Source: an uncultured Bacilli bacterium
Lineage (GTDB): Bacteria > Bacillota_I > Bacilli_A > RF39 > UBA660
Direction: 5' to 3'
Assembly (NCBI GenBank): GCA_934162195.1
Contig: CAKPHO010000002.1
Span: 13,689-77,688, forward strand
Length of the DNA: 64,000 nucleotides
A program made the translations under genes and the position numbers. Under the pieces are notes generated by a model, which was given only the letters and a program-made list of their open reading frames with translations, searched no databases and was not told the origin of the DNA. Positions 14,026 through 29,720 of this stretch are shown piece by piece. Position 1 is the stretch's first letter. Every line of letters starts with the position of its first letter.

Positions 14026-14697
14026 ATGAATTCATTAATGAATATTATTAATAATTCAACTTTTTATTATGTTGTAGTCGCATTAGCGTATGTTTTAGTG
14101 ATTCTTTTTGTTATATTTTTACTTGTTAGAAACAAAAAGAAAAGAATTGAAAAAAGAATAATGGAAGAAGAGAATAAAAAAGATATAGAGGCAGTTGATT
14201 TAGAAGCTGTTTTGGATAAGATGCAAGAAGATGTAAATAAGACCAAAGTTGATGAAGTAAAATCTTTTGAAGAAGAACAAGAAGAAAAAGCTATTATTAG
14301 TTATCAAGAATTATTAAAAGCTGTAAAAAAAGATGTTGATAATGTTACAAAGGTTGAACTTCCAAAAACAGAAATAGAAGTTGAAACAGAAGAAGAACCA
14401 GTTCAAATTATACCAGAAGAAACTATTGAAAAAGCGGATAATGCTCCTGAATTAGAGGTTATGGAAGAAAAAGAAATTAAAAAACCATCAAAATTTCAAA
14501 ATAGTGAATTTATATCTCCAATATATGGTAGAGTTAACAGTGATATGAAATATCCTAAAATACCTGCTTTTAGAGAAGAAGAGCAAACCAATCATGAAGA
14601 AGATTTAGAAAAAACTATTGTTTTCGATGCAATTAAAGATGATGATAGTGATGAATTTTTAAAAGCGCTAAAAGAATTTAGAAATAACTTAGAATAA
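14026..14697 (+). CDS. membrane-anchored acidic protein, unknown function
   Basis: One N-terminal TM followed by a Glu/Lys-rich low-complexity region. No family was recognised. Confidence 0.4.
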   Translation: MNSLMNIINNSTFYYVVVALAYVLVILFVIFLLVRNKKKRIEKRIMEEENKKDIEAVDLEAVLDKMQEDVNKTKVDEVKSFEEEQEEKAIISYQELLKAVKKDVDNVTKVELPKTEIEVETEEEPVQIIPEETIEKADNAPELEVMEEKEIKKPSKFQNSEFISPIYGRVNSDMKYPKIPAFREEEQTNHEEDLEKTIVFDAIKDDDSDEFLKALKEFRNNLE

Positions 14698-14731
14698 GCT
14701 TAGGCTTATTTTTTTACGAGGAAGTGATAAG

Positions 14732-16015
14732 ATGAAATTTTACATATATACACTAGGGTGTAAAGTAAATACATACGAGAGTAATGTTATGAGTGATTTA
14801 TTAAAAGATAAAGGATATAAAGAGGTATCTGATTTAGATGATGCGGATGTTTATATAATAAATACGTGTACAGTAACAAATACAGCTGATAATAAGTCAT
14901 TGAAAACAATTAGACAGGCGCATAGAACTAATCCTAACGCATTAATTGTAGTTTGTGGTTGTATGAGTCAACACCGCTTTAAAGATCTAATAGGCATGGA
15001 GGGTGTTAGTGTAGTACTAGGAAATAAAAATAAAAGTAAAATAGTTGAGTATATTGAAAAATACCAAAAAGATAAAAAGCAAATAGTTGATATATATGAT
15101 TTAACTGATGTTCCATTTGAAACAATGAAATTAAATAATTTCGATAAAACAAGAGCGTTTGTTAAAATTCAAGACGGATGTAATAACTTTTGTTCTTATT
15201 GTATAATTCCTTATACAAGAGGAAATGTTCGTAGTAAAAAACCAGAAGATGTTTTAGAAGAAATAAAAACTTTAGTTGAAGGTGGACATGAAGAAGTAGT
15301 TTTAACTGGAATTCATACCGGACACTATGGTTCAGAATTTGAAGACTATTCCTTCTCTGACTTATTAACAGATATTTTAAAAATAAAAGATTTAAAGAGA
15401 CTTAGAATATCTTCAATAGAAATTACAGAGTTGGATGATAAATTTTTAGATATATTAAAAAATAATAAAGTATTAGTTGATCATATGCATATACCTCTAC
15501 AATCTGGTTCAAATAAAATATTAAAATTGATGAATCGCAAATATGATAAAAAATACTTTATTGACAAGATTGAAAAGATAAGAAAGATTAGACCATTAAT
15601 TTCTATAACTACAGATATTATTGTAGGTTTTCCTGGAGAAACAGAAGAATTATTTAATGAAACACTAGAAACAGTAAAAAAGATAAGATTTAGTAAAATC
15701 CATGTTTTTCCATATTCTCCACGCGAAGGAACTAAGTCGACACTTATGGATGGACAAGTAGATGAAGTAACTAAAAAAAGAAGAGTTAAAACTTTAATTG
15801 AACTTAGTAAAGAATTAGAAATAGAGTATATGGATAAGTTTATTGGTCAGGAATTAGAATTTATTCCAGAAGTAGAACGTGATGGATATTTATTTGGCCA
15901 CACTGGTAACTATTTATATATCAAAACTAAAGGATGTAAAGAACTATTACATCAAAGTATAATGGTAAAGATAGAAAGTACTAACTACCCTTATTCAATT
16001 GGAGAGATTATTTAA
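14732..16015 (+). CDS. mtaB: tRNA methylthiotransferase, MiaB/MtaB family
   Basis: UPF0004 N-domain, radical SAM CNNFCSYCIIP motif and a TRAM-like C-terminus. It lies next to rsmE as yqeV does. Confidence 0.85.
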   Translation: MKFYIYTLGCKVNTYESNVMSDLLKDKGYKEVSDLDDADVYIINTCTVTNTADNKSLKTIRQAHRTNPNALIVVCGCMSQHRFKDLIGMEGVSVVLGNKNKSKIVEYIEKYQKDKKQIVDIYDLTDVPFETMKLNNFDKTRAFVKIQDGCNNFCSYCIIPYTRGNVRSKKPEDVLEEIKTLVEGGHEEVVLTGIHTGHYGSEFEDYSFSDLLTDILKIKDLKRLRISSIEITELDDKFLDILKNNKVLVDHMHIPLQSGSNKILKLMNRKYDKKYFIDKIEKIRKIRPLISITTDIIVGFPGETEELFNETLETVKKIRFSKIHVFPYSPREGTKSTLMDGQVDEVTKKRRVKTLIELSKELEIEYMDKFIGQELEFIPEVERDGYLFGHTGNYLYIKTKGCKELLHQSIMVKIESTNYPYSIGEII

Positions 16016-16071
16016 TCTCTTTTTTTGTTAACAAAAATCTTTTTATGCATAAACTATATTAGGTGGTTATC

Positions 16072-16437
16072 ATGGATAAAAAAGAGGAATTTAAAGCTTT
16101 TGTTAAAGAAAATCCGAAACTTTTAAAATATGTAAAAAGTGGAGAGATGACATGGCAGAAGTTTTATGAAATGTATGATATGTATGGTAAAGATGATAAT
16201 GTATGGAATGATTATCTAAAAGTAGGTGTTGCTACCGCTGCCGCAAGTGCAAGTGCCTTTTCATTTAATGATGTTATGAATTGGGTGAAAGGAATAAACT
16301 TGGATAGTGTTCAAACAGGAATAGGTAACCTTCAAAGAGTAATTGGGATGGTTCAAGATTTAACTAGTAAAGACTCTACCAATACAAAAAAAGAGGAATA
16401 TAAACCAAGACCTCTTTATAAACATTTTGATGATTAA
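16072..16437 (+). CDS. YlbD-like protein
   Basis: FKAFVKENPKLLKYVKSGEMTWQKFYEMYDMYGKDD resembles the YlbD family, and the protein precedes a YlbE-like ORF and rsmD (ylbH). Confidence 0.5.
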   Translation: MDKKEEFKAFVKENPKLLKYVKSGEMTWQKFYEMYDMYGKDDNVWNDYLKVGVATAAASASAFSFNDVMNWVKGINLDSVQTGIGNLQRVIGMVQDLTSKDSTNTKKEEYKPRPLYKHFDD

Positions 16438-16658
16438 TGATTCTAAAACTACAATTTATGATTAAAAATAACCCCAATTATGTTAAATATTTACATGAAC
16501 ACTCTGAGTGGTATAAGATATTAAATCGTAACCCTAATGCCTTTTCTTTGTTTGAAGAAAAAATGAAAGAAGATTATAAGTTAAGACCAAGTGATAAATT
16601 TGAAAGAGTTATTAGTACAATTGATATGTTACAAACAGTTCTTTCAACTTTAAAATAG
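16437..16658 (+). CDS. YlbE-like protein
   Basis: 73-aa protein containing YLHEHSEWYKILNRNP, in ylb-cluster synteny. Confidence 0.5.
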   Translation: MILKLQFMIKNNPNYVKYLHEHSEWYKILNRNPNAFSLFEEKMKEDYKLRPSDKFERVISTIDMLQTVLSTLK

Positions 16659-16685
16659 ATGTGGTAAAATATTGTTGGTGGTAAT

Positions 16686-17213
16686 ATGCGAATTATTAGT
16701 GGCAAATATAAAGGTAGAGAAATTAAAGGCTATAATATAGATGGTACTAGACCAACAATGGATAGAGTAAAAGAATCTTTGTTTGCATCTATTCAAAATT
16801 ATGTAAAAGGTAGTATATGTTTAGACTTATTTGCTGGATCCGGTGGCCTTGGAATAGAAGCTCTAAGTGAGGGAGCACTATCTTGTTATTTTGTAGATAA
16901 TAATAAAATAGTCATTGATACTTTAAGGCAAAATCTTACTAAGTTAAAAGTGGAAGAAGATTATTTTTTAATAAAAAAAGATTATGTGGAAGCTTTAAAA
17001 ACGTTTGATACAAAATTTGATATTATTTTTTTGGATCCACCATATCATTTAAATATGATGAACAATGCTATTGATTTAATAATTAAAAATGACCTATTAA
17101 ATGATGGTGGAATTATTGTTTGTGAATATGAAGAAGGAACAGTTAACTGTGACTTACAAATATTAAAAGAGAAGAAGTATGGAAGTAAAAACGTTACTAT
17201 TTTAAAAAAATAG
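16686..17213 (+). CDS. rsmD: 16S rRNA (guanine966-N2)-methyltransferase
   Basis: GTRPTMDRVKESLF, DLFAGSGGLGIEALS and the FLDPPY motif. Confidence 0.9.
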   Translation: MRIISGKYKGREIKGYNIDGTRPTMDRVKESLFASIQNYVKGSICLDLFAGSGGLGIEALSEGALSCYFVDNNKIVIDTLRQNLTKLKVEEDYFLIKKDYVEALKTFDTKFDIIFLDPPYHLNMMNNAIDLIIKNDLLNDGGIIVCEYEEGTVNCDLQILKEKKYGSKNVTILKK

Positions 17214-17281
17214 TAATTTTTTTTTGTAAAAAAAAGGATATAGCAAAATTTTAGCGAATGTTATAAGTGAGGAGGGAAAAA

Positions 17282-19351
17282 ATGACAAAGTATCCGTTTG
17301 TTAAACAAGTAGATTTAAAAGATTGTGCTAGTTGTTGTCTTTTAATGATTATTAAATATTATAATGGGTTTGTCTCGTTAGAAAAACTTAGGGATATAAC
17401 AAAGACAACAAAGCTAGGAGTTAATGCTTATAACTTATGTGAAGGTGCTAAAGAAGTTGGATTTGAAGCCGAATGTTTAAAGGTAAGTATTGAAAATTTA
17501 GATAAAAAAGAAATTTTTTTACCTATAATCGCTCATGTTAAAATAAATAACTATGGTCATTATGTGGTTATTTATAAAGTAAATAAAAAGAAGAAATATT
17601 TGATTATTGGAGATCCGGCTTCTAAAGTAAAAAAAGTTACATTTGAAGAATTTCTTAAAATATGGAATGGAATTATAATAAATTTACATCCTTGTAGAAA
17701 AATGCCCATGGAAAATGATAACTCAATTTTTTATTTCATTGTAGAATTAATTAAACCTTTTAAAACTATCTCTATTTTCGTTTTCTTGTTATCTGTTCTT
17801 GTTATAATTTTTTCATGTGCATCATCTTTATATTTTAAGATAATTTTAGATAATATAAATACCTCGTATAATTATCTCTTGTTTATTTTTATTATTTTTT
17901 TGATTATTGAAATTATAAAGTTATTAAACACTTACCTCAGAAATAGACTTGTAATTTTTTTAAATCAAAAATTAGACATGAATATTTCTAGTAATGTTTT
18001 TGATAAAATCATTGACCTTCCTTATCAATATTATCGCAATAGGACAACTGGAGAAATAGTATCTCGCTTTAATGACCTCAACTTGATTAAAGATACTATT
18101 ATCAAAATAATAGTTAGTGTAAGTACTGATTTACCACTTTTGATTGTTTCACTTATTATTATGTTTTTCACAAGCATTAAATTAAGTATAATCCTTGTTT
18201 CATTTGTCGTTTGTTATGTAATCATGGTTATTATTTTTCACCCCTTAACAAATAAAAAAATCCATGATTTACAGTTTCAAAAAGAAGATTATACATCAAC
18301 CATAGTAGAAGCAGTAGGAGGATTTGAAACCATTAAAAACTTAAATATTGAAAGTAGTATAAAAAATAAATTTGGACTCAAGTATTATAATTTTCTAGAA
18401 AAATATTTCAAATTTCAGAGCATGATTAATTTTAAACAACTGTTAAGTGATTTAATACTTGGAGTAAGTATCACTATTATAATTTATTATTCATCAGTTC
18501 AAATATATGATAATAATTTTACGATAGGCACTTTGATGATGTTTTATACTCTTGCTAATTATTTTATCGATTCTATTAAAAATATTTTAAATTTAGATGT
18601 TAATTTTAAAGAAGCTATTAATTCACTAAAAAGAGTAGTAGGACTTTTCATTGATTATAAAGATAGTGGAATTGTTAATAATTTCAACTTTAAAAAAATT
18701 GAAATTTCTAATCTTACATATTCTTATGATAATTGTGAAACTATTCTTGATAACATTAATTTAGAAATAAATAGAGGAGAAAAAATATTAATAACCGGAT
18801 CTTCTGGTAGTGGTAAATCAACACTATTTAAAATATTGATGAAGTATTATCCAATAGATAATAATAAAGTTTTTGTTGATGATATTGATTATAATTATTT
18901 TAGTAAAAAAGCTATATCTAGTAGTATCACTTATATAAGTCAAAATGAAATATTATTTTCAGATACACTTTTAAATAACTTAAGTGTTTATAAAAAGGAT
19001 AAGTTAGAAGAAGTAATTAGTTTATGTGAGATAGATAAAATCTTGAACAAAAGAAAAATTAATTTAAATTACGTTGTAGAAGAAAATGGATTTAATTTTT
19101 CAGGAGGAGAAAAGCAACGTTTTATATTGGGACGCTCTTTACAAAAAGACTTTAAAATTTTACTTATTGATGAAGAATTAAATCAAATGGATGTAAATTT
19201 GGAAAGGAGAATCTTAAAAAGATTATTTTCTAAATATCATGATAAAACAATAATAATAGTTTCTCATCGCTTAGATAATTTAGATTTGTATGATCGAAAC
19301 ATAGAAATTAAAGATGGCAAAATAGAGAAGGATGTGAAAAAAAGTGAATAA
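17282..19351 (+). CDS. bacteriocin-processing ABC transporter with N-terminal C39 peptidase domain
   Basis: C39 catalytic context (QVDLKDCASCCLLMI; HYVVIY), 6-TM domain, Walker A GSSGSGKST, signature FSGGEKQR, Walker B LLIDEE. ATG 17282 follows GAGGAGGG. Confidence 0.9.
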   Translation: MTKYPFVKQVDLKDCASCCLLMIIKYYNGFVSLEKLRDITKTTKLGVNAYNLCEGAKEVGFEAECLKVSIENLDKKEIFLPIIAHVKINNYGHYVVIYKVNKKKKYLIIGDPASKVKKVTFEEFLKIWNGIIINLHPCRKMPMENDNSIFYFIVELIKPFKTISIFVFLLSVLVIIFSCASSLYFKIILDNINTSYNYLLFIFIIFLIIEIIKLLNTYLRNRLVIFLNQKLDMNISSNVFDKIIDLPYQYYRNRTTGEIVSRFNDLNLIKDTIIKIIVSVSTDLPLLIVSLIIMFFTSIKLSIILVSFVVCYVIMVIIFHPLTNKKIHDLQFQKEDYTSTIVEAVGGFETIKNLNIESSIKNKFGLKYYNFLEKYFKFQSMINFKQLLSDLILGVSITIIIYYSSVQIYDNNFTIGTLMMFYTLANYFIDSIKNILNLDVNFKEAINSLKRVVGLFIDYKDSGIVNNFNFKKIEISNLTYSYDNCETILDNINLEINRGEKILITGSSGSGKSTLFKILMKYYPIDNNKVFVDDIDYNYFSKKAISSSITYISQNEILFSDTLLNNLSVYKKDKLEEVISLCEIDKILNKRKINLNYVVEENGFNFSGGEKQRFILGRSLQKDFKILLIDEELNQMDVNLERRILKRLFSKYHDKTIIIVSHRLDNLDLYDRNIEIKDGKIEKDVKKSE

Positions 19352-19766
19352 GTATCAAGAACTAATATTTAGAAAGAATCCTCACTGTATTTTCACTACA
19401 ACAATAAGTCTAACTATTATATTACTAACACTTATTATTATTAGCTGCTTTTATAAATATAATAGATATTATTATTTTAATGGAATAAAAAACGAGGAAG
19501 GAGGAAATAATTGTGTTAATATCTTGGTTCCACATGATGAAGTGGATATTATCAAGAATAATGATCTCTTTATAAATAAGAAAAAGATTGGTTTCTCTTA
19601 TGAAATAACAAGTGATTATTATAATGATTCTAATAAAATATATAATAATGTAATAATGCACTTTGATACTAATATTGATGTTAATGTAGTTAAACTAGTT
19701 TTTGAATCTAGTAAAACAACATTTATGAAAGAAATTATAAAAAAAATTAAGAAGGGAATGATATAA
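19344..19766 (+). CDS. small membrane-anchored accessory protein of the bacteriocin export locus
   Basis: It overlaps the ABC gene stop and has one TM followed by a ~100-aa domain. The position matches bacteriocin secretion accessory proteins, but it is much shorter than HlyD-type partners. Confidence 0.4.
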   Translation: MNKYQELIFRKNPHCIFTTTISLTIILLTLIIISCFYKYNRYYYFNGIKNEEGGNNCVNILVPHDEVDIIKNNDLFINKKKIGFSYEITSDYYNDSNKIYNNVIMHFDTNIDVNVVKLVFESSKTTFMKEIIKKIKKGMI

Positions 19767-19906
19767 TGAATAAATTAAAAAAAGAAGAAATGTTAAAAGT
19801 TAATGGTGGTGGATTTAGTTTTGGTTTTTGGGCTTTAATTGGTAGTGGTATTGTTTTTATAGTTGGACTTATAGACGGGTTTGTTCGTCCGCTAAAATGT
19901 AATTAG
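19766..19906 (+). CDS. double-glycine leader bacteriocin precursor 1 (46 aa)
   Basis: MNKLKKEEMLKVNGG / GFSFGFWALIGSGIVFIVGLIDGFVRPLKCN. The start overlaps the upstream stop (TAATG), and the ORF is absent from the ORF track. Confidence 0.75.
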   Translation: MNKLKKEEMLKVNGGGFSFGFWALIGSGIVFIVGLIDGFVRPLKCN

Positions 19907-19914
19907 GAGGTACT

Positions 19915-20076
19915 ATGAAATTAGGAAAAAAAGAAATGTTAGAAATATATGGTGGAGCTATTTCAGGAACTTTATTTAGTTCTATCGTAAGAGGAATTAG
20001 TGCAATGTTAGATTTAGGTAGAAGCTTAGGTTCTGCTATCAGAAGGCTAACTGCTAATCGTTTATGTCAAATATAA
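19915..20076 (+). CDS. double-glycine leader bacteriocin precursor 2 (53 aa)
   Basis: MKLGKKEMLEIYGG / AISGTLFSSIVRGISAMLDLGRSLGSAIRRLTANRLCQI. RBS AGGAGG lies 7 nt upstream, and the ORF is absent from the ORF track. Confidence 0.75.
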   Translation: MKLGKKEMLEIYGGAISGTLFSSIVRGISAMLDLGRSLGSAIRRLTANRLCQI

Positions 20077-20228
20077 TAAGTTTTATAGAAAAGAATAAAA
20101 AAATCTTATTACTCGTATTATTTATTCTTTTAATACCAATTATAGAGCCAATTGTAGAAGTACTTGGAAAGATTCTATTTTACCTTGGTAAATATATAGG
20201 AACTTTTACGAGAAAAATAATGATTTAA
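20064..20228 (+). CDS. candidate immunity protein (54-aa membrane peptide)
   Basis: MSNIISFIEKNKKILLLVLFILLIPIIEPIVEVLGKILFYLGKYIGTFTRKIMI. It overlaps the end of precursor 2 by 13 nt, and the operon terminator follows. Confidence 0.4.
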   Translation: MSNIISFIEKNKKILLLVLFILLIPIIEPIVEVLGKILFYLGKYIGTFTRKIMI

Positions 20229-20230
20229 CT

Positions 20231-20260
20231 AAAAAAGTGGTTTTTTATGCCACTTTTTTT
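20231..20260 (+). terminator. intrinsic terminator of the bacteriocin operon
   Basis: AAAAAAGTGG-(loop)-CCACTTTTTTT. Confidence 0.7.
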
Positions 20261-20357
20261 GCAAATTACTAAGTAAAACAACGATTAAATAAAATTTTTC
20301 TTGTAATAAATAATAATTGGTGTTATAATATTGACAGTCAAGAAGGGAGGGATATAG

Positions 20358-20555
20358 ATGTCTACAGTAGTAGTAAAGAACGGAAACGTTGAAGGTGCAT
20401 TACGTACTATGAAACAAAAAAATATGAGAGACGGCCTCCTAAAAGCAGTTAGAGAAAGAAACGAAGGTTATATGAAACCAGGCGTTAAAAGAAGATTAGC
20501 TAAAAAAGAAGCAATCCGTAATAGTCGTAAAAGAAATAGAGAAAGAGATTATTAG
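20358..20555 (+). CDS. rpsU: 30S ribosomal protein S21
   Basis: 65-aa basic protein: VVVKNGNVEGALRTMKQK...KPGVKRRLAKKEA. Confidence 0.9.
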   Translation: MSTVVVKNGNVEGALRTMKQKNMRDGLLKAVRERNEGYMKPGVKRRLAKKEAIRNSRKRNRERDY

Positions 20556-20593
20556 TAGAACCAATTAAGGTTCTCTTTTTGAAAGGTGATACT

Positions 20594-21040
20594 ATGAAAG
20601 AAAAGATTTTAATTGATTTAAAAAATGCGATGAAAAATCAAAATAGAGATTTATTATCAGTAATTAGAATGGTTAAGGGCGCTATCCAATTAGAAGAGAT
20701 AAAAGTAAAACATGAACTTAATGATGAAGAAATTATTACTATTATTGGTAGAGAAATAAAAACAAGACGTGAATCAATTAAAGAATTTGAAAAAGGTGGA
20801 AGACAAGATTTAATTGATAAAACACAAAAAGAAATTGATATACTAAGTAAGTATATGCCAGCTCAAATGAGTGAAGAAGAAGTGTTGAAAGTAATTGATG
20901 AAGTGTTTGCAAAAGTAAATCCTACCGGTCCTTCAGATATGGGAAAAGTCATGGGAGCAATCGCACCAATGGTTAAAGGTAAAGCTGATTTAGGTTTTGT
21001 TAATAATAAAATAAAAGAAAGATTAGCTAATTTAAAATAG
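20594..21040 (+). CDS. yqeY: GatB/YqeY domain-containing protein
   Basis: LKNAMKNQNRDLLSVIRMVKGAIQ...EIKTRRESIKEFEKGGRQDL...MGKVMG. The rpsU-yqeY order is conserved. Confidence 0.85.
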   Translation: MKEKILIDLKNAMKNQNRDLLSVIRMVKGAIQLEEIKVKHELNDEEIITIIGREIKTRRESIKEFEKGGRQDLIDKTQKEIDILSKYMPAQMSEEEVLKVIDEVFAKVNPTGPSDMGKVMGAIAPMVKGKADLGFVNNKIKERLANLK

Positions 21041-21085
21041 ATATATTTATTTATATCTATTTTTTTGTTATAATGTCTTTGTAAT

Positions 21086-21161
21086 GCTGAAATAGCTCAG
21101 CTGGTAGAGCAGCTCCCTCGTAAAGAGCAGGTCGGGGGTTCAAATCCCTTTTTCAGCACCA
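21086..21161 (+). tRNA. tRNA-Thr (anticodon CGT), CCA encoded
   Basis: Hand-folded cloverleaf: acceptor GCTGAAA/TTTCAGC, D arm GCTC/GAGC, anticodon loop CTCGTAA, T arm GGGGG-TTCAAAT-CCCTT. An extended -10 TGTTATAAT lies at ~21066. Confidence 0.8.
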
Positions 21162-21164
21162 TAT

Positions 21165-21238
21165 GCCGATATAGTTTAGTGGTAAAATAGGTCATTGGTA
21201 ATGATCAGCGGATAGTTCAATTCTATCTTTCGGCACCA
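21165..21238 (+). tRNA. tRNA-Thr (anticodon GGT), CCA encoded
   Basis: Acceptor GCCGATA/TTTCGGC (one U-U mismatch), anticodon stem GGTCA/TGATC with loop TTGGTAA, T arm GATAG-TTCAATT-CTATC. A hairpin terminator follows at ~21279-21316. Confidence 0.7.
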
Positions 21239-21406
21239 TTAGAAAATTTATTTATATTTTTATAAGTTTGGATTTGACATAAAAAATATCAATTTTAAAA
21301 TAGATTGATATTTTTTGTTGACTTAAAATATTATAGTAGAAAAATTTTAATTGATTTCTGTTAGAACAGTTAATTTTCATGTTATAATAAAATAGGTGAT
21401 AACTCT

Positions 21407-23917
21407 ATGGAAATAAATTACAATGATGCACTTCAACAAACAATGCTTAATTGGAAATATTATGATAAAAATATGGATCCATTTTATGGTTGCCTAATAT
21501 CATATCTAATAGAAGTTGGCGGTTACAAATTAAGTAAAGATGGAAGTGAACGTGATCAAGTAAAAAAGATAGAAATTATTTTAAAAAATGAACCCAAAAT
21601 ATTTAAAGGTATACTTAAAATATTGATGCAAAATGAATTTTCTGGTAATTTAGGTTTTAGATATCAATATAGAAACACGCTTTATAAAGGGCGTGATGAA
21701 GAAAATCATTTTAGTATACTAAAATTTAAAATAATCGATGATAAATTATATGTGTATGACTTAATTGTCAGTAGAGAAAATAGAAAATATGTAGAAATTA
21801 AAAAAATAAATAACGTTGATGCTAATGAGCTTATAGCTTTGTTAAAAAATGATGGATATTCTGAGGAAGAAATAGAAATTCTACTTCAGCACAAAGAGGT
21901 ATTGCAAGCTTATGGTATTGACAGTTTATCTTATACTATAACAGTGTTAAATAATAATTTAATTAACATGCAACTAGATGATCCAAATATTAAATTAGAT
22001 TTTTCTATTTTCTACAAAGAACACGCTAAATCTAATTTGCTCACTAAGACTAATTTTTCTTTAAAACCTGGAACAAGTGATAGTAATGCTTCTTATGGTT
22101 ATGATAGTAATATAAAGTTATTATTTTTGTTGCATGGTCTATGTAAAAGCCAAAAAGATTTATCTTTTTTTGAGAATGCATATAAGAAAAATGTTGGTTT
22201 GTTAGGCGATGGTAGTAATACAGATATTAATGTAGATTGGGTGTTTTTGAGTAGCTTCTTTTTATTTAATCGCGAAGAAAAGAATACATTGCCTGATTAC
22301 TTGTATCTTGATTTAGAAAGAAAACTTAAATTGGTTAGTCCATATGGGGCAATGTGCATATTTTTAGATGAAAATAATAAAGAAGTATCTTATCAATCTA
22401 ACTCAACACAATTAGATTATGGAAGTAATGATTATATACTAAAAGATGGAAAACTTGATTCAAAAATGTTATTTCATGCTATAAGAAACGCTTTAGCTCA
22501 CTCATCGTATGAAGTTATTGATAAAAATTATATTCGTATTTTTGGATATAATAATGAAGGTGTAATGAATTGTAATTTTAAAATTCATAGAGATATGGTA
22601 ATTGAATTTATTAATAAATTATCGGCCTATAATAACTTTGGAAATATATTTCCAATATGCACATTGGAAAAACCAAATTATGCTAATAATCCCATTTTAA
22701 CAAAAGAAGATTTAAAAAGCTATTTAGAAAGCATTATTATTTCAGATATTACTAATGTTAAGTATCAAGACTTAGACGCCTTAAAAAAGCTTCAAATGTA
22801 TGCACAGCGTTTTGTCAAAGAGGAAAACAAAGAGGTAAATAAAAATATAGATTATAAATTTTTAGAAGTGCTTGAATATGATTATGAACGAAAAATTCAT
22901 TACCTAAAACAAGAATTACAAAGCCCTATGACAGTAAAGCCTGAATTTGTTGAATTTATTACCAAATCACGACTTAAGTATTTCTTAGATTATAAATTAG
23001 AAGAATATAGGTTATCCGAAATACAAATTAATAAAATTGTTGAAAAAATAGAACAAATATCTGATACTTTTTATGGACATAGTGCAACAAACCAACATGC
23101 AATAATAACTGAATTAATAAGAAATCAAATAAATCCAAGTAGAAATATATCAATGATTATAGAAGATATTATTGAAACAAGTGATAAATCTAATGGCACA
23201 ATTATGGATATGTTAAATGATACTTCTATAAAATATATTGATTATGATAAAGTACTAAAAGCAACCATTATAGCGTATTTAAATAATATACTTTTATATA
23301 GTTATAATGGTACAAAAATTGATTTGAGTGATTTAAATTTTTCAAAATTAAAGTGTGATATTGATTTTGAAAAATTGATTTCTGATAAGCAAAAAAGACT
23401 CAATGATTTGAGAAGAGAAAATAGTAATATTTGCAAGACTAATAGAAAGAAGAAAAAAAGAATTAGTGATATAACTATTCGACTTAAAAAAATAACTGAT
23501 GAAGAAGAAAGAAATAGGTTGATTGAAGAAAAACAAATCCTTGAAGATAGCCTTCGCCAAGATGATAACTCTAAACAAGAAGAAAACATTAAAGAAATGA
23601 CTGATTTAATAAATGATTTAGAAGATTTAAATAACAGGAGATTGGATAGTCCTTTTATAAGTGCTTATATATTAGAACATTTGAGAAATTCTCTTGCCCA
23701 TGGAAATATATTCTTTTCTGATACAATTGATTTAAATGATATAGGAGATTTGCAAATAACATTTATAGATTATTATCCTGATACAACAGACGAATCGTTT
23801 AAAGCCACAATTAAGCTTGAACAATTATTGACTATATTGAATAATGATAAATTTATTAGCAGTATTTTTGCAAATACACATAAAAAATCTATTGATAATC
23901 ATTCTCAAAAAAACTAG
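21407..23917 (+). CDS. tandem-HEPN-motif protein, 836 aa, unknown family
   Basis: Two RX4H motifs in similar sequence context: IRNALAH (R360-H365, nt 22484-22501) and LRNSLAH (R760-H765, nt 23684-23701). A Lys/Glu-rich coiled-coil-like stretch lies between them. The gene has its own extended -10 promoter (TGTTATAAT ~21381). Confidence 0.6.
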   Translation: MEINYNDALQQTMLNWKYYDKNMDPFYGCLISYLIEVGGYKLSKDGSERDQVKKIEIILKNEPKIFKGILKILMQNEFSGNLGFRYQYRNTLYKGRDEENHFSILKFKIIDDKLYVYDLIVSRENRKYVEIKKINNVDANELIALLKNDGYSEEEIEILLQHKEVLQAYGIDSLSYTITVLNNNLINMQLDDPNIKLDFSIFYKEHAKSNLLTKTNFSLKPGTSDSNASYGYDSNIKLLFLLHGLCKSQKDLSFFENAYKKNVGLLGDGSNTDINVDWVFLSSFFLFNREEKNTLPDYLYLDLERKLKLVSPYGAMCIFLDENNKEVSYQSNSTQLDYGSNDYILKDGKLDSKMLFHAIRNALAHSSYEVIDKNYIRIFGYNNEGVMNCNFKIHRDMVIEFINKLSAYNNFGNIFPICTLEKPNYANNPILTKEDLKSYLESIIISDITNVKYQDLDALKKLQMYAQRFVKEENKEVNKNIDYKFLEVLEYDYERKIHYLKQELQSPMTVKPEFVEFITKSRLKYFLDYKLEEYRLSEIQINKIVEKIEQISDTFYGHSATNQHAIITELIRNQINPSRNISMIIEDIIETSDKSNGTIMDMLNDTSIKYIDYDKVLKATIIAYLNNILLYSYNGTKIDLSDLNFSKLKCDIDFEKLISDKQKRLNDLRRENSNICKTNRKKKKRISDITIRLKKITDEEERNRLIEEKQILEDSLRQDDNSKQEENIKEMTDLINDLEDLNNRRLDSPFISAYILEHLRNSLAHGNIFFSDTIDLNDIGDLQITFIDYYPDTTDESFKATIKLEQLLTILNNDKFISSIFANTHKKSIDNHSQKN

Positions 23918-24068
23918 TGAAAACTAATTAAATTGCGTTTAAATTAGAATTTGACAAAAACAAAAAAATGTATATAATATATAGCAACAACGGGGATAAA
24001 GACTGATTTGACAATATATAAGTAATGTGTTAGAATATAGCACATTCAGTAAGAAGAGGGGGATTTAT

Positions 24069-25043
24069 ATGAAAAATAAAGATACTTTATATGAAGAATC
24101 AAAAAAAGCTGTTCAAGAAGGTGAAAACAACAAATCATCACAAATAGTTGTGTATACACCACAAGAAGAAATGGCTAAGAAAAAATTTAAGTTAACTAAA
24201 AATAAAAAAGTAAGAGTTGTTGCTGGTACTTTAGCGTTCCTTGTTCTTTTAGGAGCAATCGTACTTGGTGCTAGATCTTGTAAAAAAGATAATAGAAATA
24301 CTGGCGCTGAGACTACAGTTTCATATAGTGATGATGAATTAAAAGTAATTTATATTGATAAAGAAACATATTTACAAAATGTTCAAACTTTAGCTCAATA
24401 CTTAAATAATTACGGTAATAAAAATGTTAAACCTGTTGATGTAAATAGTTTTTATTACCTAGCTAACATGGATAATATTAAATCTTCTACTTTTAAAGAA
24501 TTAGTTGAAGAAGGATATTTACCAGAAAGTGAAACTGATATTATTATTCAAGCTTTAGGTATCATGGATGATTTAAGAGATACAGTTGCTTTAGAAGGTA
24601 TTGCTGGAAAAGAAGCTTCAGTTGATTATTCTAAAATATTTGTAAACTCTAGAACAGCTAAAGTATTTAGTTCTGCTCAAGATGTATACAATGACGCTGT
24701 AAGAACATCACAAGGTGATACTAGAGATAGTATTTTAGAAGATAAAAGTGCTCCAATTAAAGATCAATTAACTAAATTAGGTGAAATAGAAGATAATTAT
24801 GAATTAGGAGAAAATACATTAAATGTAAATATTCCTGAATTTGGTACATTATCTGCTGCTGAACAAGTACTTTATTACAATCTTCAATCAAAAACATTTG
24901 ATATATTATTAGCTAATTATGGTGTATCAGTTGGTGGAGAGGCAAGAGATTATCGTATCGATGATATTTCTAACTTAGTAGTTTCATTACGTGATGAATT
25001 TGCTTGTCTACAAGATGAAAAGGGAAAAACTTATCAAAAATAG
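24069..25043 (+). CDS. single-pass membrane protein, unknown function
   Basis: RBS GAGGGGGA precedes ATG 24069. A ~60-aa cytoplasmic N-terminus and one TM (AGTLAFLVLLGAIVLGA) are followed by a ~240-aa external domain. No family was recognised. Confidence 0.4.
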   Translation: MKNKDTLYEESKKAVQEGENNKSSQIVVYTPQEEMAKKKFKLTKNKKVRVVAGTLAFLVLLGAIVLGARSCKKDNRNTGAETTVSYSDDELKVIYIDKETYLQNVQTLAQYLNNYGNKNVKPVDVNSFYYLANMDNIKSSTFKELVEEGYLPESETDIIIQALGIMDDLRDTVALEGIAGKEASVDYSKIFVNSRTAKVFSSAQDVYNDAVRTSQGDTRDSILEDKSAPIKDQLTKLGEIEDNYELGENTLNVNIPEFGTLSAAEQVLYYNLQSKTFDILLANYGVSVGGEARDYRIDDISNLVVSLRDEFACLQDEKGKTYQK

Positions 25044-25091
25044 TCAATGTGACTATTTTTTTTCTTTTTCATAAAATATATTGGTGATGAT

Positions 25092-26048
25092 ATGAATAGT
25101 TTAATAGGTAATACACCTCTAATAAAAATAAAATACGAGTATAATAGTAAAATTGAAGAAATATATACTAAGTTAGAGTATTACAATCTAACAGGTAGTA
25201 TAAAAGATAGAATGGCTGATTTTATTATAAAAGAAGCTTATAAAAGTAAATTGTTGGTAAAAGGTCAAGCTATAATAGAAGCTACTAGTGGTAATACTGG
25301 TATATCGCTTGCTTCAATAGGGGCTTTCTATCATAATCCTGTATATATATTTATGCCTGATTGGGTAAGCAGTGAAAGAAAAAAGATAATGGAAATGTAT
25401 GGAGCTACAGTAACGTTAATAAGCAAAGAAGAAGGGGGATTTAAAAGATGTATAGAAGAAGCTGAACGTTTAGCTTCTAAAATTAATGGTTTTAGAGTTA
25501 ATCAATTTAGTAATCCAAATAATCTTTTAGCCCATTTTCAAACCACGGGTGCAGAAATAATAAATAAGTTGAAAAAAGTAGATGGGTTTGTTAGTGGTAT
25601 TGGTACTGGTGGAACTTTGATGGGTACTGCTAGTAAGATAAAAGAGGTTAATAATAATTTAGTAGTATGTGCTGTAGAACCTAAAGAACTTCCTATATTA
25701 AAAAATGAAAATAGTGTAGGAAGTCATAAAATAGATGGTATAGGGGATGATTTTATACCTGAACTTTTAGATAGAAATAAAATAGATGTTATTTATGATA
25801 TTAGTGATGAAGATGCAATAAATATGTCGCGATTACTTTCATCTAAACTAGGATTAGGTGTTGGAATATCAAGTGGATGTAATTTTTTAGGTAGTATTTT
25901 ATTAAATGAAGAACTAGATGGTAATATTGTTACAGTATTTCCTGATGATAATAAAAAGTATCTTAGTACAAATTTAAGTAAAGGAATCAGCAAAGATGAG
26001 AAATTAATATCAAATAAAATAAAACTAATATCTTACGAAATAGTTTAA
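25092..26048 (+). CDS. cysK: cysteine synthase (PLP-dependent, CysK/CysM family)
   Basis: The SIKDR lysine motif, TSGNTGISLA and GIGTGGT are present. Confidence 0.85.
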   Translation: MNSLIGNTPLIKIKYEYNSKIEEIYTKLEYYNLTGSIKDRMADFIIKEAYKSKLLVKGQAIIEATSGNTGISLASIGAFYHNPVYIFMPDWVSSERKKIMEMYGATVTLISKEEGGFKRCIEEAERLASKINGFRVNQFSNPNNLLAHFQTTGAEIINKLKKVDGFVSGIGTGGTLMGTASKIKEVNNNLVVCAVEPKELPILKNENSVGSHKIDGIGDDFIPELLDRNKIDVIYDISDEDAINMSRLLSSKLGLGVGISSGCNFLGSILLNEELDGNIVTVFPDDNKKYLSTNLSKGISKDEKLISNKIKLISYEIV

Positions 26049-26089
26049 AATGTAATAAATTATGATATAATTAATATGGAGTTGATTAT

Positions 26090-27484
26090 ATGAAATTATA
26101 TAATACATTAACAAGAACTATAGAAGATTTTATTCCAAACAAAGAAGGTCATGTATCAATGTATACTTGTGGGCCTACGGTTTATCATTTCGCACATATT
26201 GGAAATCTTCGTACATATATATTTGAAGATGTTTTAGAAAGAAGTTTAAACTTTTTAGGATATGATGTAAAGAGAGTCATGAATATTACTGATGTTGGAC
26301 ATTTAAGTAGTGATTCTGATAGTGGTGAAGATAAAATGCTTAAAGGTGCTAAAAGGGAACATAAGTCAGTTTTAGAAATAGCCGATTTTTATACAGAAGA
26401 GTTTAAAAAAGATTGTGCTAAATTAAATATTAAGTGGCCTAAAATTGTTTCTAAAGCAACAGATAATATTGATTTTTATATAAAGATAATAACTAAACTA
26501 CTTGAAGATGGTAAAGCTTATATAGCTGGTGGAAATGTTTACTTTGATACTTCTAAGTTAGATGACTATTATAAATTAACTAATCATAAGGAAGATGAGA
26601 TGGTAGTTGGCGTACGTGATGGTGTAGAGGAAGATTCTAACAAAAAGAATCAAGCTGATTTTGTTTTATGGTTTACTAAATCAAAATTTGATTCTCAAGA
26701 ATTAAAATGGGATTCTCCTTGGGGGTATGGATATCCTGGTTGGCATATTGAATGTTCTGGTATTTCATTGAAATATTTAGGAGAATACTTAGATATACAC
26801 TGTGGTGGTGTTGATAATATTTTTCCTCACCACACTAATGAGATAGCTCAATCAGAAAGTTACCTTGGACATAAGTGGTGTAATTATTGGGTTCATGGGG
26901 AACATTTAAACGATAAAGATGGAAAGATGAGTAAATCAAAAGGAGAATTTTTAACTGTATCTTTACTAGAAAGTAAAGGTTATAATCCCTTAAGTTATCG
27001 TTTTATGTGTTTACAATCTCATTATCGTAAAGTGTTAGAATTTAGTTATGATGCTCTAGATAATAGTACTAATGCTTATAATAAATTAAGAAGCAAGATT
27101 AGTGATATTAAAGAAAATGGTGATATTGATTTAGATGGCTCTAGTAAATATATGAATCAATTCAAAACTGCTCTAGAAAATGACCTTAATACATCTGCTG
27201 CTTTAACAACTTTATATGATGTTTTAAAAAGTGATTTAAATAATACAACTAAATTATATTTAACTAAAAAGTTTGATGAAGTGCTAGGTTTAAATTTATG
27301 TGTAAAAGAAGAACTTGAGATAGATTCCCAGTTAGAACAATACATAAAAAATAAAATAGAAGAAAGAAATATAGCTAAAAAGAATAAAGATTACTCTTTG
27401 GCTGATCAGATCCGTGATGAATTAAAAGAAAAAGGAATAATAATCAAAGATACAAGGGAAGGAACTATTTTTGAAATAGTATAG
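26090..27484 (+). CDS. cysS: cysteine--tRNA ligase
   Basis: Class I motifs HIGN (HIGH) and KMSKS, plus WHIECS zinc-site context. Confidence 0.95.
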   Translation: MKLYNTLTRTIEDFIPNKEGHVSMYTCGPTVYHFAHIGNLRTYIFEDVLERSLNFLGYDVKRVMNITDVGHLSSDSDSGEDKMLKGAKREHKSVLEIADFYTEEFKKDCAKLNIKWPKIVSKATDNIDFYIKIITKLLEDGKAYIAGGNVYFDTSKLDDYYKLTNHKEDEMVVGVRDGVEEDSNKKNQADFVLWFTKSKFDSQELKWDSPWGYGYPGWHIECSGISLKYLGEYLDIHCGGVDNIFPHHTNEIAQSESYLGHKWCNYWVHGEHLNDKDGKMSKSKGEFLTVSLLESKGYNPLSYRFMCLQSHYRKVLEFSYDALDNSTNAYNKLRSKISDIKENGDIDLDGSSKYMNQFKTALENDLNTSAALTTLYDVLKSDLNNTTKLYLTKKFDEVLGLNLCVKEELEIDSQLEQYIKNKIEERNIAKKNKDYSLADQIRDELKEKGIIIKDTREGTIFEIV

Positions 27485-27492
27485 GTGATATT

Positions 27493-28194
27493 ATGAATTA
27501 TGGAACATGGGGATATGAAGATGGATTAACTTTACTTCTTAGTTTAATTGGTTTTATCATTGTTATTTATGCCCAAATAAAAGTAAATCTTAGTTATGCA
27601 AAAACCAGTAAAATTAAGTCAAATAGAGGATTATCAGGTCAAGAAGTAGCACGTAAAATACTTGATAGTAATGGACTTAATAATATTCATATTGTTGAGG
27701 TACAAGGCAAACTAACAGATCATTATGATCCAAGCAGAAAAGTATTAAGATTATCTCACGATATTTTTAATGGTGATAGTATTGCTTCTGTTTCGGTAGC
27801 GGCTCATGAATGTGGTCATGCTATTCAAGATAAAGACGGTTATGTTTTTATGCGTATTAGAGGCTTTTTAGTTCCTGTAGTTAATTTTGTTACATATATA
27901 GGATATTTTGTTGCTATTATATCTCTTATAGGAGGTATTACAGGTTATTTAAAAGTAAGTTTATTAATTATACTTGCAGCTGTTTTATTTCAACTAGTAA
28001 CTCTTCCTGTTGAGTTTGATGCTTCAAATCGTGCAAAAGAAGAATTGTTAAAACTAGGTTTAATAGATAATGAAGAACAAAAGAATGTAAAAAATATGTT
28101 AGGTTCTGCTGCGCTTACTTATGTAGCAAGCTTAGTATCTTCTATTTTAAATGTACTTAGAATTTTAATAATGTTAGGAAGAAGAGATGATTAG
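27493..28194 (+). CDS. zinc metallopeptidase, YugP/peptidase_M?-like membrane protein
   Basis: AAHECGHAIQD HExxH motif, TM segments at both ends, and the YugP-like N-terminal context SGQEVARKILD. Confidence 0.75.
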   Translation: MNYGTWGYEDGLTLLLSLIGFIIVIYAQIKVNLSYAKTSKIKSNRGLSGQEVARKILDSNGLNNIHIVEVQGKLTDHYDPSRKVLRLSHDIFNGDSIASVSVAAHECGHAIQDKDGYVFMRIRGFLVPVVNFVTYIGYFVAIISLIGGITGYLKVSLLIILAAVLFQLVTLPVEFDASNRAKEELLKLGLIDNEEQKNVKNMLGSAALTYVASLVSSILNVLRILIMLGRRDD

Positions 28195-28217
28195 TCTCTT
28201 TTATTGTCGGTGAAAAT

Positions 28218-29093
28218 ATGAATGGAATATTACTTGTAAACAAGGAAAAAAATTATACTAGTAGAGATATTGTAAATAAAGTTGGAAAGATTTTAGGAAC
28301 TAAAAAAATTGGTCATACCGGGACCTTAGATCCACTAGCAATAGGAGTATTAGTTTTATGTATAGGTTCAGCAACTAAACTAAATGAAATTTTAACATCT
28401 ACTTATAAAGAATATGAAGCAGAAATTACCTTAGGCCTTCTTACTGATACCCTAGATATAACTGGTAATGTGTTAAAAGAAGAAAGTGTGAAGGTAAATA
28501 AAGGACAATTATTAGAAGCTTTAAATAAAATGATTGGCAAATATATACAAGAAGTACCAATTTATTCAGCAGTTAAAGTAAATGGTAAAAAACTTTATGA
28601 ATATGCTAGAAATGGTGAAAGTGTTGAACTTCCTAAAAGAGAAGTTGATATAAAAAAACTGGAACTAGTAGGAGATATTAGATATATAGATAATAAAACT
28701 GTTTTTAATATTAGATGTTTAGTTAGTAAAGGAACTTATATTAGAGCCCTAGTTAATGATATAGCTACTAATTTAAATACAATTGGTGTTATGTCAAAAC
28801 TAAAAAGAACGAAACAAGGAATCTTTAATCTTGAGGATTGTTATACGTTAGATGATATAGAAAATGGTAATTATAAATTAATTAGTGTTGATGAAGTGTT
28901 GAACGAATATCCTAGAGTTATGGTTGAAGGAAGAGAAGAAAAATTAGTAAGTAATGGAGCAATTATAGATAATAGTTGGAATAAAGATAAAATATTATTT
29001 ATAGATAAAAATAATATTCTAATAGCGCTTTATAAAACTTATGAAAAAGATAAAACAAAATTAAAACCATGGAAAATGTTAAAAAACAAGTAA
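28218..29093 (+). CDS. truB: tRNA pseudouridine(55) synthase
   Basis: GHTGTLDPLAIGVL catalytic Asp motif and YSAVKVNGKKLYEYAR. Confidence 0.9.
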   Translation: MNGILLVNKEKNYTSRDIVNKVGKILGTKKIGHTGTLDPLAIGVLVLCIGSATKLNEILTSTYKEYEAEITLGLLTDTLDITGNVLKEESVKVNKGQLLEALNKMIGKYIQEVPIYSAVKVNGKKLYEYARNGESVELPKREVDIKKLELVGDIRYIDNKTVFNIRCLVSKGTYIRALVNDIATNLNTIGVMSKLKRTKQGIFNLEDCYTLDDIENGNYKLISVDEVLNEYPRVMVEGREEKLVSNGAIIDNSWNKDKILFIDKNNILIALYKTYEKDKTKLKPWKMLKNK

Positions 29094-29107
29094 GAAAGGA
29101 GGAATTT

Positions 29108-29338
29108 ATGAAAGAAATATATCGAGGTGACATTAGAAGGTTAGATCATGGAAAGACACCACTTGTTAAAGAAAGTGCGACTTTAATGAAAATAAATCAA
29201 TACCATTATTTAGACGTTGATTGTATTTTTAACGGAAAAAAGAAAGTTTATAATGTACTACCAAAAGAAGGTAATTGCTTTGTTGATGTTTATTCATTAA
29301 TAACAGTAAAAGAAAAAAGTTATCAAAAAATAAAATAA
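29108..29338 (+). CDS. small hypothetical protein (76 aa)
   Basis: AAGGAGG precedes ATG 29108. It occupies the slot where ribF often sits between truB and rpsO. No family was recognised. Confidence 0.35.
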   Translation: MKEIYRGDIRRLDHGKTPLVKESATLMKINQYHYLDVDCIFNGKKKVYNVLPKEGNCFVDVYSLITVKEKSYQKIK

Positions 29339-29450
29339 TACTTGCATGTTTTTAAAAACTCGTGTATATTATTAGTAGTACTTATTCTTGGATTGAGGAT
29401 TCTCCGTCCCTGTCTCAGTTTAAGCAAATAAAAAGAAAAGGAGAGATAAT

Positions 29451-29720
29451 ATGGCATTAAGTAAAGAAAAGAAAGCTGAAATAGTTAAAAATTTTGGTAC
29501 TTCAGCTAACGATACTGGATCTTGTGAAGTTCAAATTGCAATTTTAACAGAAGAAATTAAAAATTTAACTGAACACTTAAAAGAACATCAACATGACTTT
29601 CATTCTAGACGTGGATTACTTAAAAAAGTAGGTCAAAGAAGAAGTTTGTTAAATTACTTAGTTAAAAACGATGTTACAAGATATCGTGAAGTTATTAAGA
29701 AATTAGGATTAAGAAAATAA
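29451..29720 (+). CDS. rpsO: 30S ribosomal protein S15
   Basis: [42 protein letters not shown]. Confidence 0.95.

Follow-up and report, generated by a model that had tools for sequence, protein, structure and literature searches.

Among the suicide effectors of bacterial immunity, HEPN ribonucleases (RNases) form a major class. Their active site is built from two Rx4-6H motifs at a domain-domain interface, and nearly all known HEPN RNases pair two separate chains for this purpose; Cas13 is the well-known exception, and the AbiD/F lineage has been proposed as its ancestor. Single-gene HEPN defence that works without an antitoxin exists in the form of DARNA/PD-T7-3, which cuts tRNA anticodon loops on sensing single-stranded DNA (ssDNA) bound by SSB, and the single-domain pEK499_p136 family (PF18736) has been reported near restriction-modification genes, ADP-ribosyltransferases and Pgl defence genes. 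Here we describe a gene for an 836-amino-acid (aa) protein with two such motifs, found in a 64,000-nt stretch of DNA (the window) from an uncultured Bacilli bacterium (assembly GCA_934162195.1, contig CAKPHO010000002.1). An earlier note on this stretch had read the gene product as an orphan with a Cas13-like catalytic layout, and proposed either a standalone RNA-targeting defence or toxin effector or a Cas13-related protein without its array. From the analysis below, the product very probably contains two HEPN modules, and it is best explained as a single-gene defence RNase of the abortive-infection type from a previously unannotated family, a reading that we consider probable.

The open reading frame (ORF) and its two motifs, RNALAH and RNSLAH, were recovered at the coordinates and residues originally noted. 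So was the similar context that follows them, SSYEVIDKNYIRIFGY...NFKIHRDMVIEFINKL after motif 1 and GNIFFSDTIDLNDIGDLQITFIDY...FKATIKLEQLLTIL after motif 2, as well as a Lys/Glu-rich, coiled-coil-like stretch in which 48 of the 95 residues from aa 651 to 745 are K, E, R or D. Across six homolog pairs, the ratio of nonsynonymous to synonymous substitution rates (dN/dS) was 0.07-0.30; judged by these ratios, the two-HEPN ORF is a real gene under purifying selection.

We compared the motif regions with known HEPN proteins by profile-profile alignment. A set of 92 full-length homologs of the pEK499 type protein ("HEPN family nuclease" WP_000528932.1, 166 aa, PF18736 E 1e-49) was aligned, and this 92-sequence pEK499_p136 alignment was matched by hhalign against sub-alignments of an 83-sequence alignment of the new family. 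The first module (HEPN1, aa 226-430) matched template positions 47-109 with 93.8% probability (E 1.7e-7), and the second (HEPN2, aa 545-650 joined to 745-836) matched positions 84-142 with 87.8% probability (E 3.3e-6). As a control, the N-terminal, middle and coiled-coil regions gave 0.1% probability against the same family, and the non-HEPN regions gave 0.1-0.4% against HEPN profiles overall. When HEPN1 and HEPN2 were aligned with each other, they matched with 96.5% probability (E 8.5e-10) over 57 columns spanning the motif helix, three strands and the next helix, which bears out the proposed internal duplication of one module; this required the broader 83-sequence alignment, as a shallow alignment of 18 sequences matched the two over 20 residues only. 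Against an Abi_2/AbiD alignment, hhalign gave 84% for HEPN2, 54% for HEPN1 and 90.8% for pEK499_p136 itself, with the similarity confined to the motif region, and thus the HEPN2 match to the AbiD/F lineage is about as strong as that to pEK499_p136. The PF18736 model applied to the last 96 aa alone scored 17.9 bits (E 0.0027), below its gathering threshold of 26.6 bits, and faint or weak precomputed PF18736 matches are present in many homologs; a Pfam search gave no match for 17 homologs and none for ten divergent members, while PDB sequence and profile searches returned coiled-coil noise only. Altogether, both regions around the motifs show profile-level homology to a bona fide HEPN family.

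In HEPN structures, the Rx4-6H motif terminates a helix just ahead of a loop, and the residue after the arginine is N, D or H (PMC3710099). The AlphaFold model of the full-length protein (pLDDT 77, pTM 0.67) predicts the same order of elements in both modules, i.e., a helix ending in the motif, three strands and then a helix, and the helix-end placement of the motifs in this model agrees with the known HEPN topology. In the models, helices precede and follow the motif, an order of secondary structure that would fit a four-helix up-down bundle in which the motif closes helix 3. The insert within HEPN2 is predicted as three long helices (residues 654-742), and in the model this charged coiled-coil occupies the canonical insert position of the HEPN2 module, as that position has been described for HEPN domains (PMC3710099).

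The protein is not an orphan, contrary to the first description. A word-indexed search returned 66 homologs, nearly all of about 830 aa and none of them named, from Logan, ENA and a few NCBI assemblies, and an exhaustive profile search of 1.84 billion cluster representatives (E<=1e-3) found 128 clusters at 50% identity, with members of about 460-920 aa. The genome matches are all metagenome-assembled genomes (MAGs) labelled "uncultured Bacilli/Firmicutes bacterium" from human (Hadza), rabbit and goat gut, and the family clusters come nearly all from AT-rich gut Bacilli MAGs. Conservation of the motif arginines and histidines among homologs had been set as a check beforehand, and all four (R360, H365, R760 and H765) are unchanged across 18 homologs with identities as low as 30%. 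Of the 137 family proteins with 450 aa or more, 123 have two R[NDH]xxxH motifs spaced 280-450 aa apart; among the other 14, some are fragments at contig ends, some have R[KC]xxAH or KNxxAH variants, and two show no recognisable motif. The members of the 83-sequence alignment have a median identity of 24% to the window protein and were selected for the R and H residues and not for others; here conservation reaches 85% or more only at R360, A364, H365, Y368, R760, N761, A764, H765, G766, D788 and F798, and the residue after the motif arginine is N, D or H in all 83 members. Family members diverge to about 15-25% identity, yet the two motifs are their most conserved positions.

The N-terminal domain is missing or shortened in family members of 550-690 aa found by the search of representatives. 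Because many of these lose the domain and keep the motifs, it is an add-on to a two-HEPN core. A 592-aa member (L015:9521-11299; L numbers denote the loci compared) is without the 225-aa N-terminal domain and has both RNALAH and RNSLAH.

Strains of the same species, located via exact-sequence look-up of the upstream YqeY protein, differ in whether they have the gene. It is present in L028, L029 and L032-L035 and absent from L030 and L031, which align to the window at 14594-21238 and 23941-29452 only, with flanks that are 99.2-99.5% identical. In the latter two strains the alignment stops at the last base of tRNA-Thr(GGT), and 290 unrelated bases replace the 2702 of the window. The two-HEPN gene is, therefore, a cassette that varies between strains and sits as an insertion at a tRNA gene's 3' end. 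A MAG whose protein is 92% identical (L006) carries the cassette at the same site, and all other homologs are located elsewhere. The empty-site allele (L030:6646-6935, 290 nt) is predicted to fold into several strong hairpins, with a minimum free energy of -68 kcal/mol; it has no Rfam match and no match among the other loci compared. It may represent an ancestral spacer, a gene for a small RNA or what is left of another cassette.

The borders of the gene recur as points where similarity between copies ends. Among copies that are 88-98% identical in DNA (L004, L005, L007-L011, L016, L017 and L021), similarity breaks off about 29-33 nt ahead of the start codon and 0-4 nt beyond the stop codon, with some subsets sharing a further 100-400 nt. 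Because similarity between copies ends at the gene borders, the mobile unit is one gene with its putative promoter, and breakpoints that match the gene so exactly suggest that it has been exchanged repeatedly in the manner of a cassette. The gene borders of the compared copies showed neither repeats nor recombination sites. A functional link to tRNA-Thr was considered and rejected, given that only one other context adjoins a tRNA; the adjacency reflects an insertion hot spot. In that other context, a tRNA-His gene occupies L003:7827-7902 and a 30%-identical homolog starts about 100 nt after it. The gene also lies downstream of secA in three loci from different family branches, directly in L007 (7329-9821) and L009 (2813-5305) and 2.4 kb away in L013 (4960-7464), and secA may be a second recurrent insertion spot.

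The neighbours of the homologs repeatedly include defence genes and integrases. In L018, type II restriction-modification genes are followed by GajA (1.9e-58) and GajB (4.7e-73) directly upstream of the homolog, with an integrase downstream, and in L004 an integrase, Mob_Pre and AbiD (5e-28) lie directly upstream, again with an integrase downstream. Type I methylase and specificity subunits adjoin the homolog in L005, AbiLi (4e-97) and AbiLii are neighbours in L019 and L020, and a HEC-06/GmrSD-like gene and Bro-N lie near the L003 homolog together with the tRNA-His. Single neighbours of this kind are NERD (L001), RhuM (L008), Fic (L009), KilA-N (L011) and an integrase (L010 and L021). This survey of homolog neighbourhoods revealed no arrays in L001-L015 and no fixed housekeeping context. 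It also agrees with the initial observation that the gene has no antitoxin-like partner: no partner gene recurs, and neighbours differ in every context. A 155-aa ORF (L001:7352-7819 and L002:2092-2559) with matches to class II aminoacyl-tRNA synthetase and anticodon-binding domains (tRNA-synt_2b and HGTP_anticodon) stands directly upstream of the homolog; its length does not suffice for a complete synthetase, and it may be a fragment or decoy.

The features of the window locus are collected in Table 1. Downstream of the two-HEPN gene are a single-pass membrane protein gene (24069-25043), cysK and cysS. The membrane protein gene had been noted as following the two-HEPN gene; it is not linked to that gene, as it is kept in L030 and L031 and belongs to the core genome. 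We also rejected a functional link between the two, since the membrane protein gene persists in strains without the ORF and does not occur in any other context.

Table 1. Features of the two-HEPN locus (positions in the window)
Feature	Position	Strand	Basis or remark
tRNA-Thr(CGT)	21086..21161		ARAGORN, Rfam; first of the tRNA-Thr pair
tRNA-Thr(GGT)	21165..21238	+	ARAGORN, Rfam; second of the pair; its last base is the left cassette boundary
Strain-variable cassette, 2702 nt	21239..23940	+	leader, promoter, two-HEPN gene, 23-nt tail
Putative promoter: extended -10 TGTTATAAT (21380-21388) and AGGTGA ribosome-binding site (21394-21399)	21380..21399	+	sequence
Two-HEPN protein gene	21407..23917	+	ORF, 836 aa
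N-terminal alpha/beta domain, aa 1-225	21407..22081	+	secondary structure; accessory; no known relatives
HEPN1 module, pEK499_p136-like, aa 226-430	22082..22696	+	hhalign
Motif 1 RNALAH, R360-H365	22484..22501	+	aa 360-365; C-terminal end of helix 352-364
Middle alpha/beta domain, aa 431-544	22697..23038	+	secondary structure
HEPN2 module, pEK499_p136-like, aa 545-836	23039..23914	+	hhalign; interrupted by the helical insert
Charged coiled-coil-like insert, aa 651-744	23357..23638	+	between the "YLNNILLY" helix and the HEPN2 motif helix
Motif 2 RNSLAH, R760-H765	23684..23701	+	aa 760-765; C-terminal end of helix 749-764

The claim that the gene has its own extended -10 promoter stands in part. 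The element in the leader is perfect, and a TGnTAtAAT element is found 15-25 nt before the start codon in most homologs compared, in unrelated contexts; promoter-like hexamers across the region, in contrast, are not commoner than in shuffled sequence. The case for a real promoter is thus made from the recurrence of TGnTAtAAT in homologs, not from the regional hexamer scan, and we refer to it as putative. As first reported, there is no array, significant repeat or cas gene in the flanks (20900-25200) or elsewhere in the window; no CRISPR-like array was found in loci L001-L015, no cas gene among the annotated neighbours in related loci, and no att repeats around the gene or in related loci. An Rfam search of 20000-26000 retrieved the two tRNAs only, with no non-coding RNA (ncRNA) and in particular no AbiF-type RF03085. 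A scan detected no intrinsic terminator, and the 3' hairpin is not significant (z -1.19). GC content was discarded as a sign of foreign origin, as it is uninformative in a genome of 25% GC.

The cassette leader contains, 43 nt past the tRNA pair, an inverted repeat rich in A and T, AAAAATATCAAT...ATTGATATTTTT, with a run of T after it (21281-21315); it could terminate the tRNA transcript. In this portion of the leader, 70%-identity homologs bear no resemblance to the window. Further upstream of the two-HEPN gene, the window contains a bacteriocin locus (17267-20228). It comprises an ABC exporter with a C39 peptidase (17267-19351), a 140-aa accessory protein (19344-19766), two small peptides with double-glycine leaders, i.e., MNKLKKEEMLKVNGG followed by GFSF... 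(19766-19906) and MKLGKKEMLEIYGG followed by AISG... (19915-20076), and, at its end, a hydrophobic immunity-like ORF of 54 aa (20064-20228).

How might a defence RNase of this kind work? We propose that the two HEPN modules would pair and thereby bring their Rx4H motifs together in a single composite RNase site that needs no metal. By analogy with Cas13, this pairing would most likely take place within one chain, because the family keeps both motifs in one chain, or else across a homodimer. The enzyme would be made constitutively from its own promoter and be held inactive by its non-catalytic parts, i.e., the N-terminal domain, the middle domain and the coiled-coil insert; such auto-inhibition is probable because there is no antitoxin gene. 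A phage-derived cue, as in DARNA/PD-T7-3, may then switch the enzyme on, and the active form would cleave RNA of the host, the phage or both, at tRNA anticodon loops or in mRNA, with 2',3'-cyclic phosphate ends as the result. Cleavage would lead to growth arrest, and the infection would be aborted.

The proposal of a standalone RNA-targeting defence or toxin effector, made in the earlier note, is backed by the profile homology to HEPN proteins, by the strain-variable cassette, by the defence neighbours and by the lack of a partner gene. Several results weigh against a HEPN defence RNase. The full-length protein has no match in Pfam, PADLOC, NCBIfam, PHROGs or PDB, and its PF18736 match is sub-threshold (17.9 versus 26.6 bits). 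Foldseek gave nothing significant for the full-length model against PDB (best E 0.7, coiled-coil proteins) or BFVD (best E 0.02, TM 0.11), or for the HEPN1 model (pLDDT 68) against PDB (best E 0.22); the HEPN fold is thus without structural confirmation, with no Cas13 or other HEPN structure retrieved. No relatives were found in the viral contigs of IMG/VR. Finally, only ordinary neighbours (such as tRNA, cysK, cysS, secA and ndk) are present in the window, L006, L013, L015, L016 and L024-L027, a setting that would suit a lineage-specific housekeeping RNase acting in RNA processing or quality control in reduced-genome gut Bacilli, with no role in conflict. HEPN RNases do perform housekeeping work in eukaryotes, as Las1 and Swt1 show, but strains with near-identical flanks differ in the presence of this gene, near-identical copies occur in many contexts with no conserved synteny, defence systems and integrases are repeatedly adjacent, and the whole family amounts to 128 clusters among 1.84 billion representatives; we regard a housekeeping role as improbable. 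The missing Foldseek match would also fit modules that are HEPN-like and non-catalytic, serving as a ligand-binding part or scaffold of a protein that acts otherwise. Some HEPN domains are indeed nucleotide-binding or inactive, but inactive ones typically lose Rx4-6H (PMC3710099), whereas here both motifs are the most conserved positions, which makes this explanation very improbable.

Other readings keep the catalytic RNase and change its role or its control. It could be the toxin of a toxin-antitoxin-like module whose antitoxin, a small RNA in the cassette or the product of a tiny ORF, went unrecognised, and would then serve mainly in addiction or stabilisation of mobile DNA and not in phage defence. 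HEPN toxins are often under antitoxin control, RNA antitoxins included, according to the background literature; AbiF, for one, is neutralised by the AbiF ncRNA. The resemblance of HEPN2 to Abi_2/AbiD (84%) and the travelling of the gene with mobile elements point the same way. Against it, there is no conserved partner ORF, Rfam shows nothing but the two tRNAs in the region searched, and a flanking RNA gene has little room, since copies share DNA only from about 30 nt ahead of the start codon up to the stop codon; the ORFs on the reverse strand of the gene, as candidates for a tiny-ORF antitoxin, sit in the low-complexity coiled-coil region. We consider such a module distinctly unlikely. A relative of Cas13, or a Cas13-like RNA-guided nuclease whose guide does not come from a CRISPR array, could be argued from two HEPN motifs in one chain of Cas13-like size and from the proposal that Cas13 itself arose by fusion of two defence HEPN genes (PMC12165695). 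It is nevertheless extremely improbable: PADLOC, NCBIfam and PDB yield no sequence match to Cas13 models or structures and Foldseek no fold match, an array is missing from the window and from the 15 loci scanned, there is no conserved non-coding flank and no Rfam match, and the HEPN modules look pEK499_p136-like. The idea of a Cas13-related protein without its array is accordingly not supported, and the "Cas13-like layout" is kept as an architectural analogy only, in that two HEPN motifs share a chain. A bolder alternative, unlikely in our estimate, is a CRISPR-independent, within-chain HEPN pseudo-dimer that would have arrived at the Cas13 design a second time and independently, or would be an early sister of it; a specific nucleic acid (for instance a phage transcript, a tRNA or ssDNA) would be sensed by the N-terminal, middle and coiled-coil parts, which would thereupon open up the composite RNase site. 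The single-gene abortive-infection RNase thus remains the reading that we prefer.

The family occurs in uncultured gut Bacilli of humans and animals and is unrepresented in Pfam, NCBIfam, PADLOC, PHROGs and PDB. If the defence role is true, it would add a new single-gene system to the defence catalogues, give an independent example of HEPN fusion and provide a tractable case of a within-chain two-HEPN site that is switched without a guide RNA. If the pseudo-dimer is true, it would reveal how gating works in a fused two-HEPN nuclease that has no guide RNA, and it might serve as a compact RNase scaffold activated by a ligand.

Compared to the systems described so far, the two-HEPN protein shares with pEK499_p136 an R-N-S/A-x-A-H motif at a helix end, a short beta-meander and helix after it, and an upstream helix with a conserved Asn. 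Unlike it, pEK499_p136 proteins have one HEPN domain in about 150-170 aa (140-190 aa among the homologs collected), whereas here two are contained in 836 aa together with the N-terminal, middle and coiled-coil parts; pEK499_p136 is also mostly proteobacterial, whereas the two-HEPN family comes from gut Bacilli MAGs. In the full-text literature, the name pEK499_p136 was found in the 2013 HEPN survey only. On the E. coli plasmid pEK499 (NC_013122 111726-113012; L023:41727-43013), the HEPN gene is followed after a gap of 12 nt by a gene for a 257-aa hypothetical protein, and the two lie between VapBC modules and insertion sequence elements; the canonical single-HEPN pEK499_p136 may therefore work as a two-gene unit, unlike the fused form.

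AbiD/AbiF, DARNA/PD-T7-3, ApeA and PD-T4-2 resemble the two-HEPN protein as standalone systems of defence islands that combine a HEPN RNase with extra non-catalytic domains and have no protein antitoxin, but each of their chains carries one HEPN domain, and their active site arises by homo-oligomerisation. The protein gave no Abi_2 or PADLOC AbiD match, whereas the neighbour gene in L004 matches both, and no PADLOC or Pfam match to DARNA/PD-T7-3, ApeA or PD-T4-2. In Swt1 and Las1, a HEPN dyad or two HEPN motifs likewise serve one cleavage site outside CRISPR systems; these are, however, eukaryotic RNA-processing or surveillance enzymes with other domains (PIN, the Grc3 partner), and no sequence relationship to them was detected. 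A search of the full-text literature for tandem or dual HEPN returned Cas13 and Las1 papers only.

Cas13 differs from the protein described here, which has no array, cas genes, sequence or fold similarity to Cas13, or conserved flank able to encode a guide. Both have a pair of Rx4H HEPN motifs in one polypeptide, and their sizes are similar; because the motifs share one polypeptide as in Cas13, a within-chain composite site is plausible. Altogether, the two-HEPN proteins are a fused HEPN family without a CRISPR link, drawn from a different HEPN type, pEK499_p136-like, and moving as a one-gene cassette.

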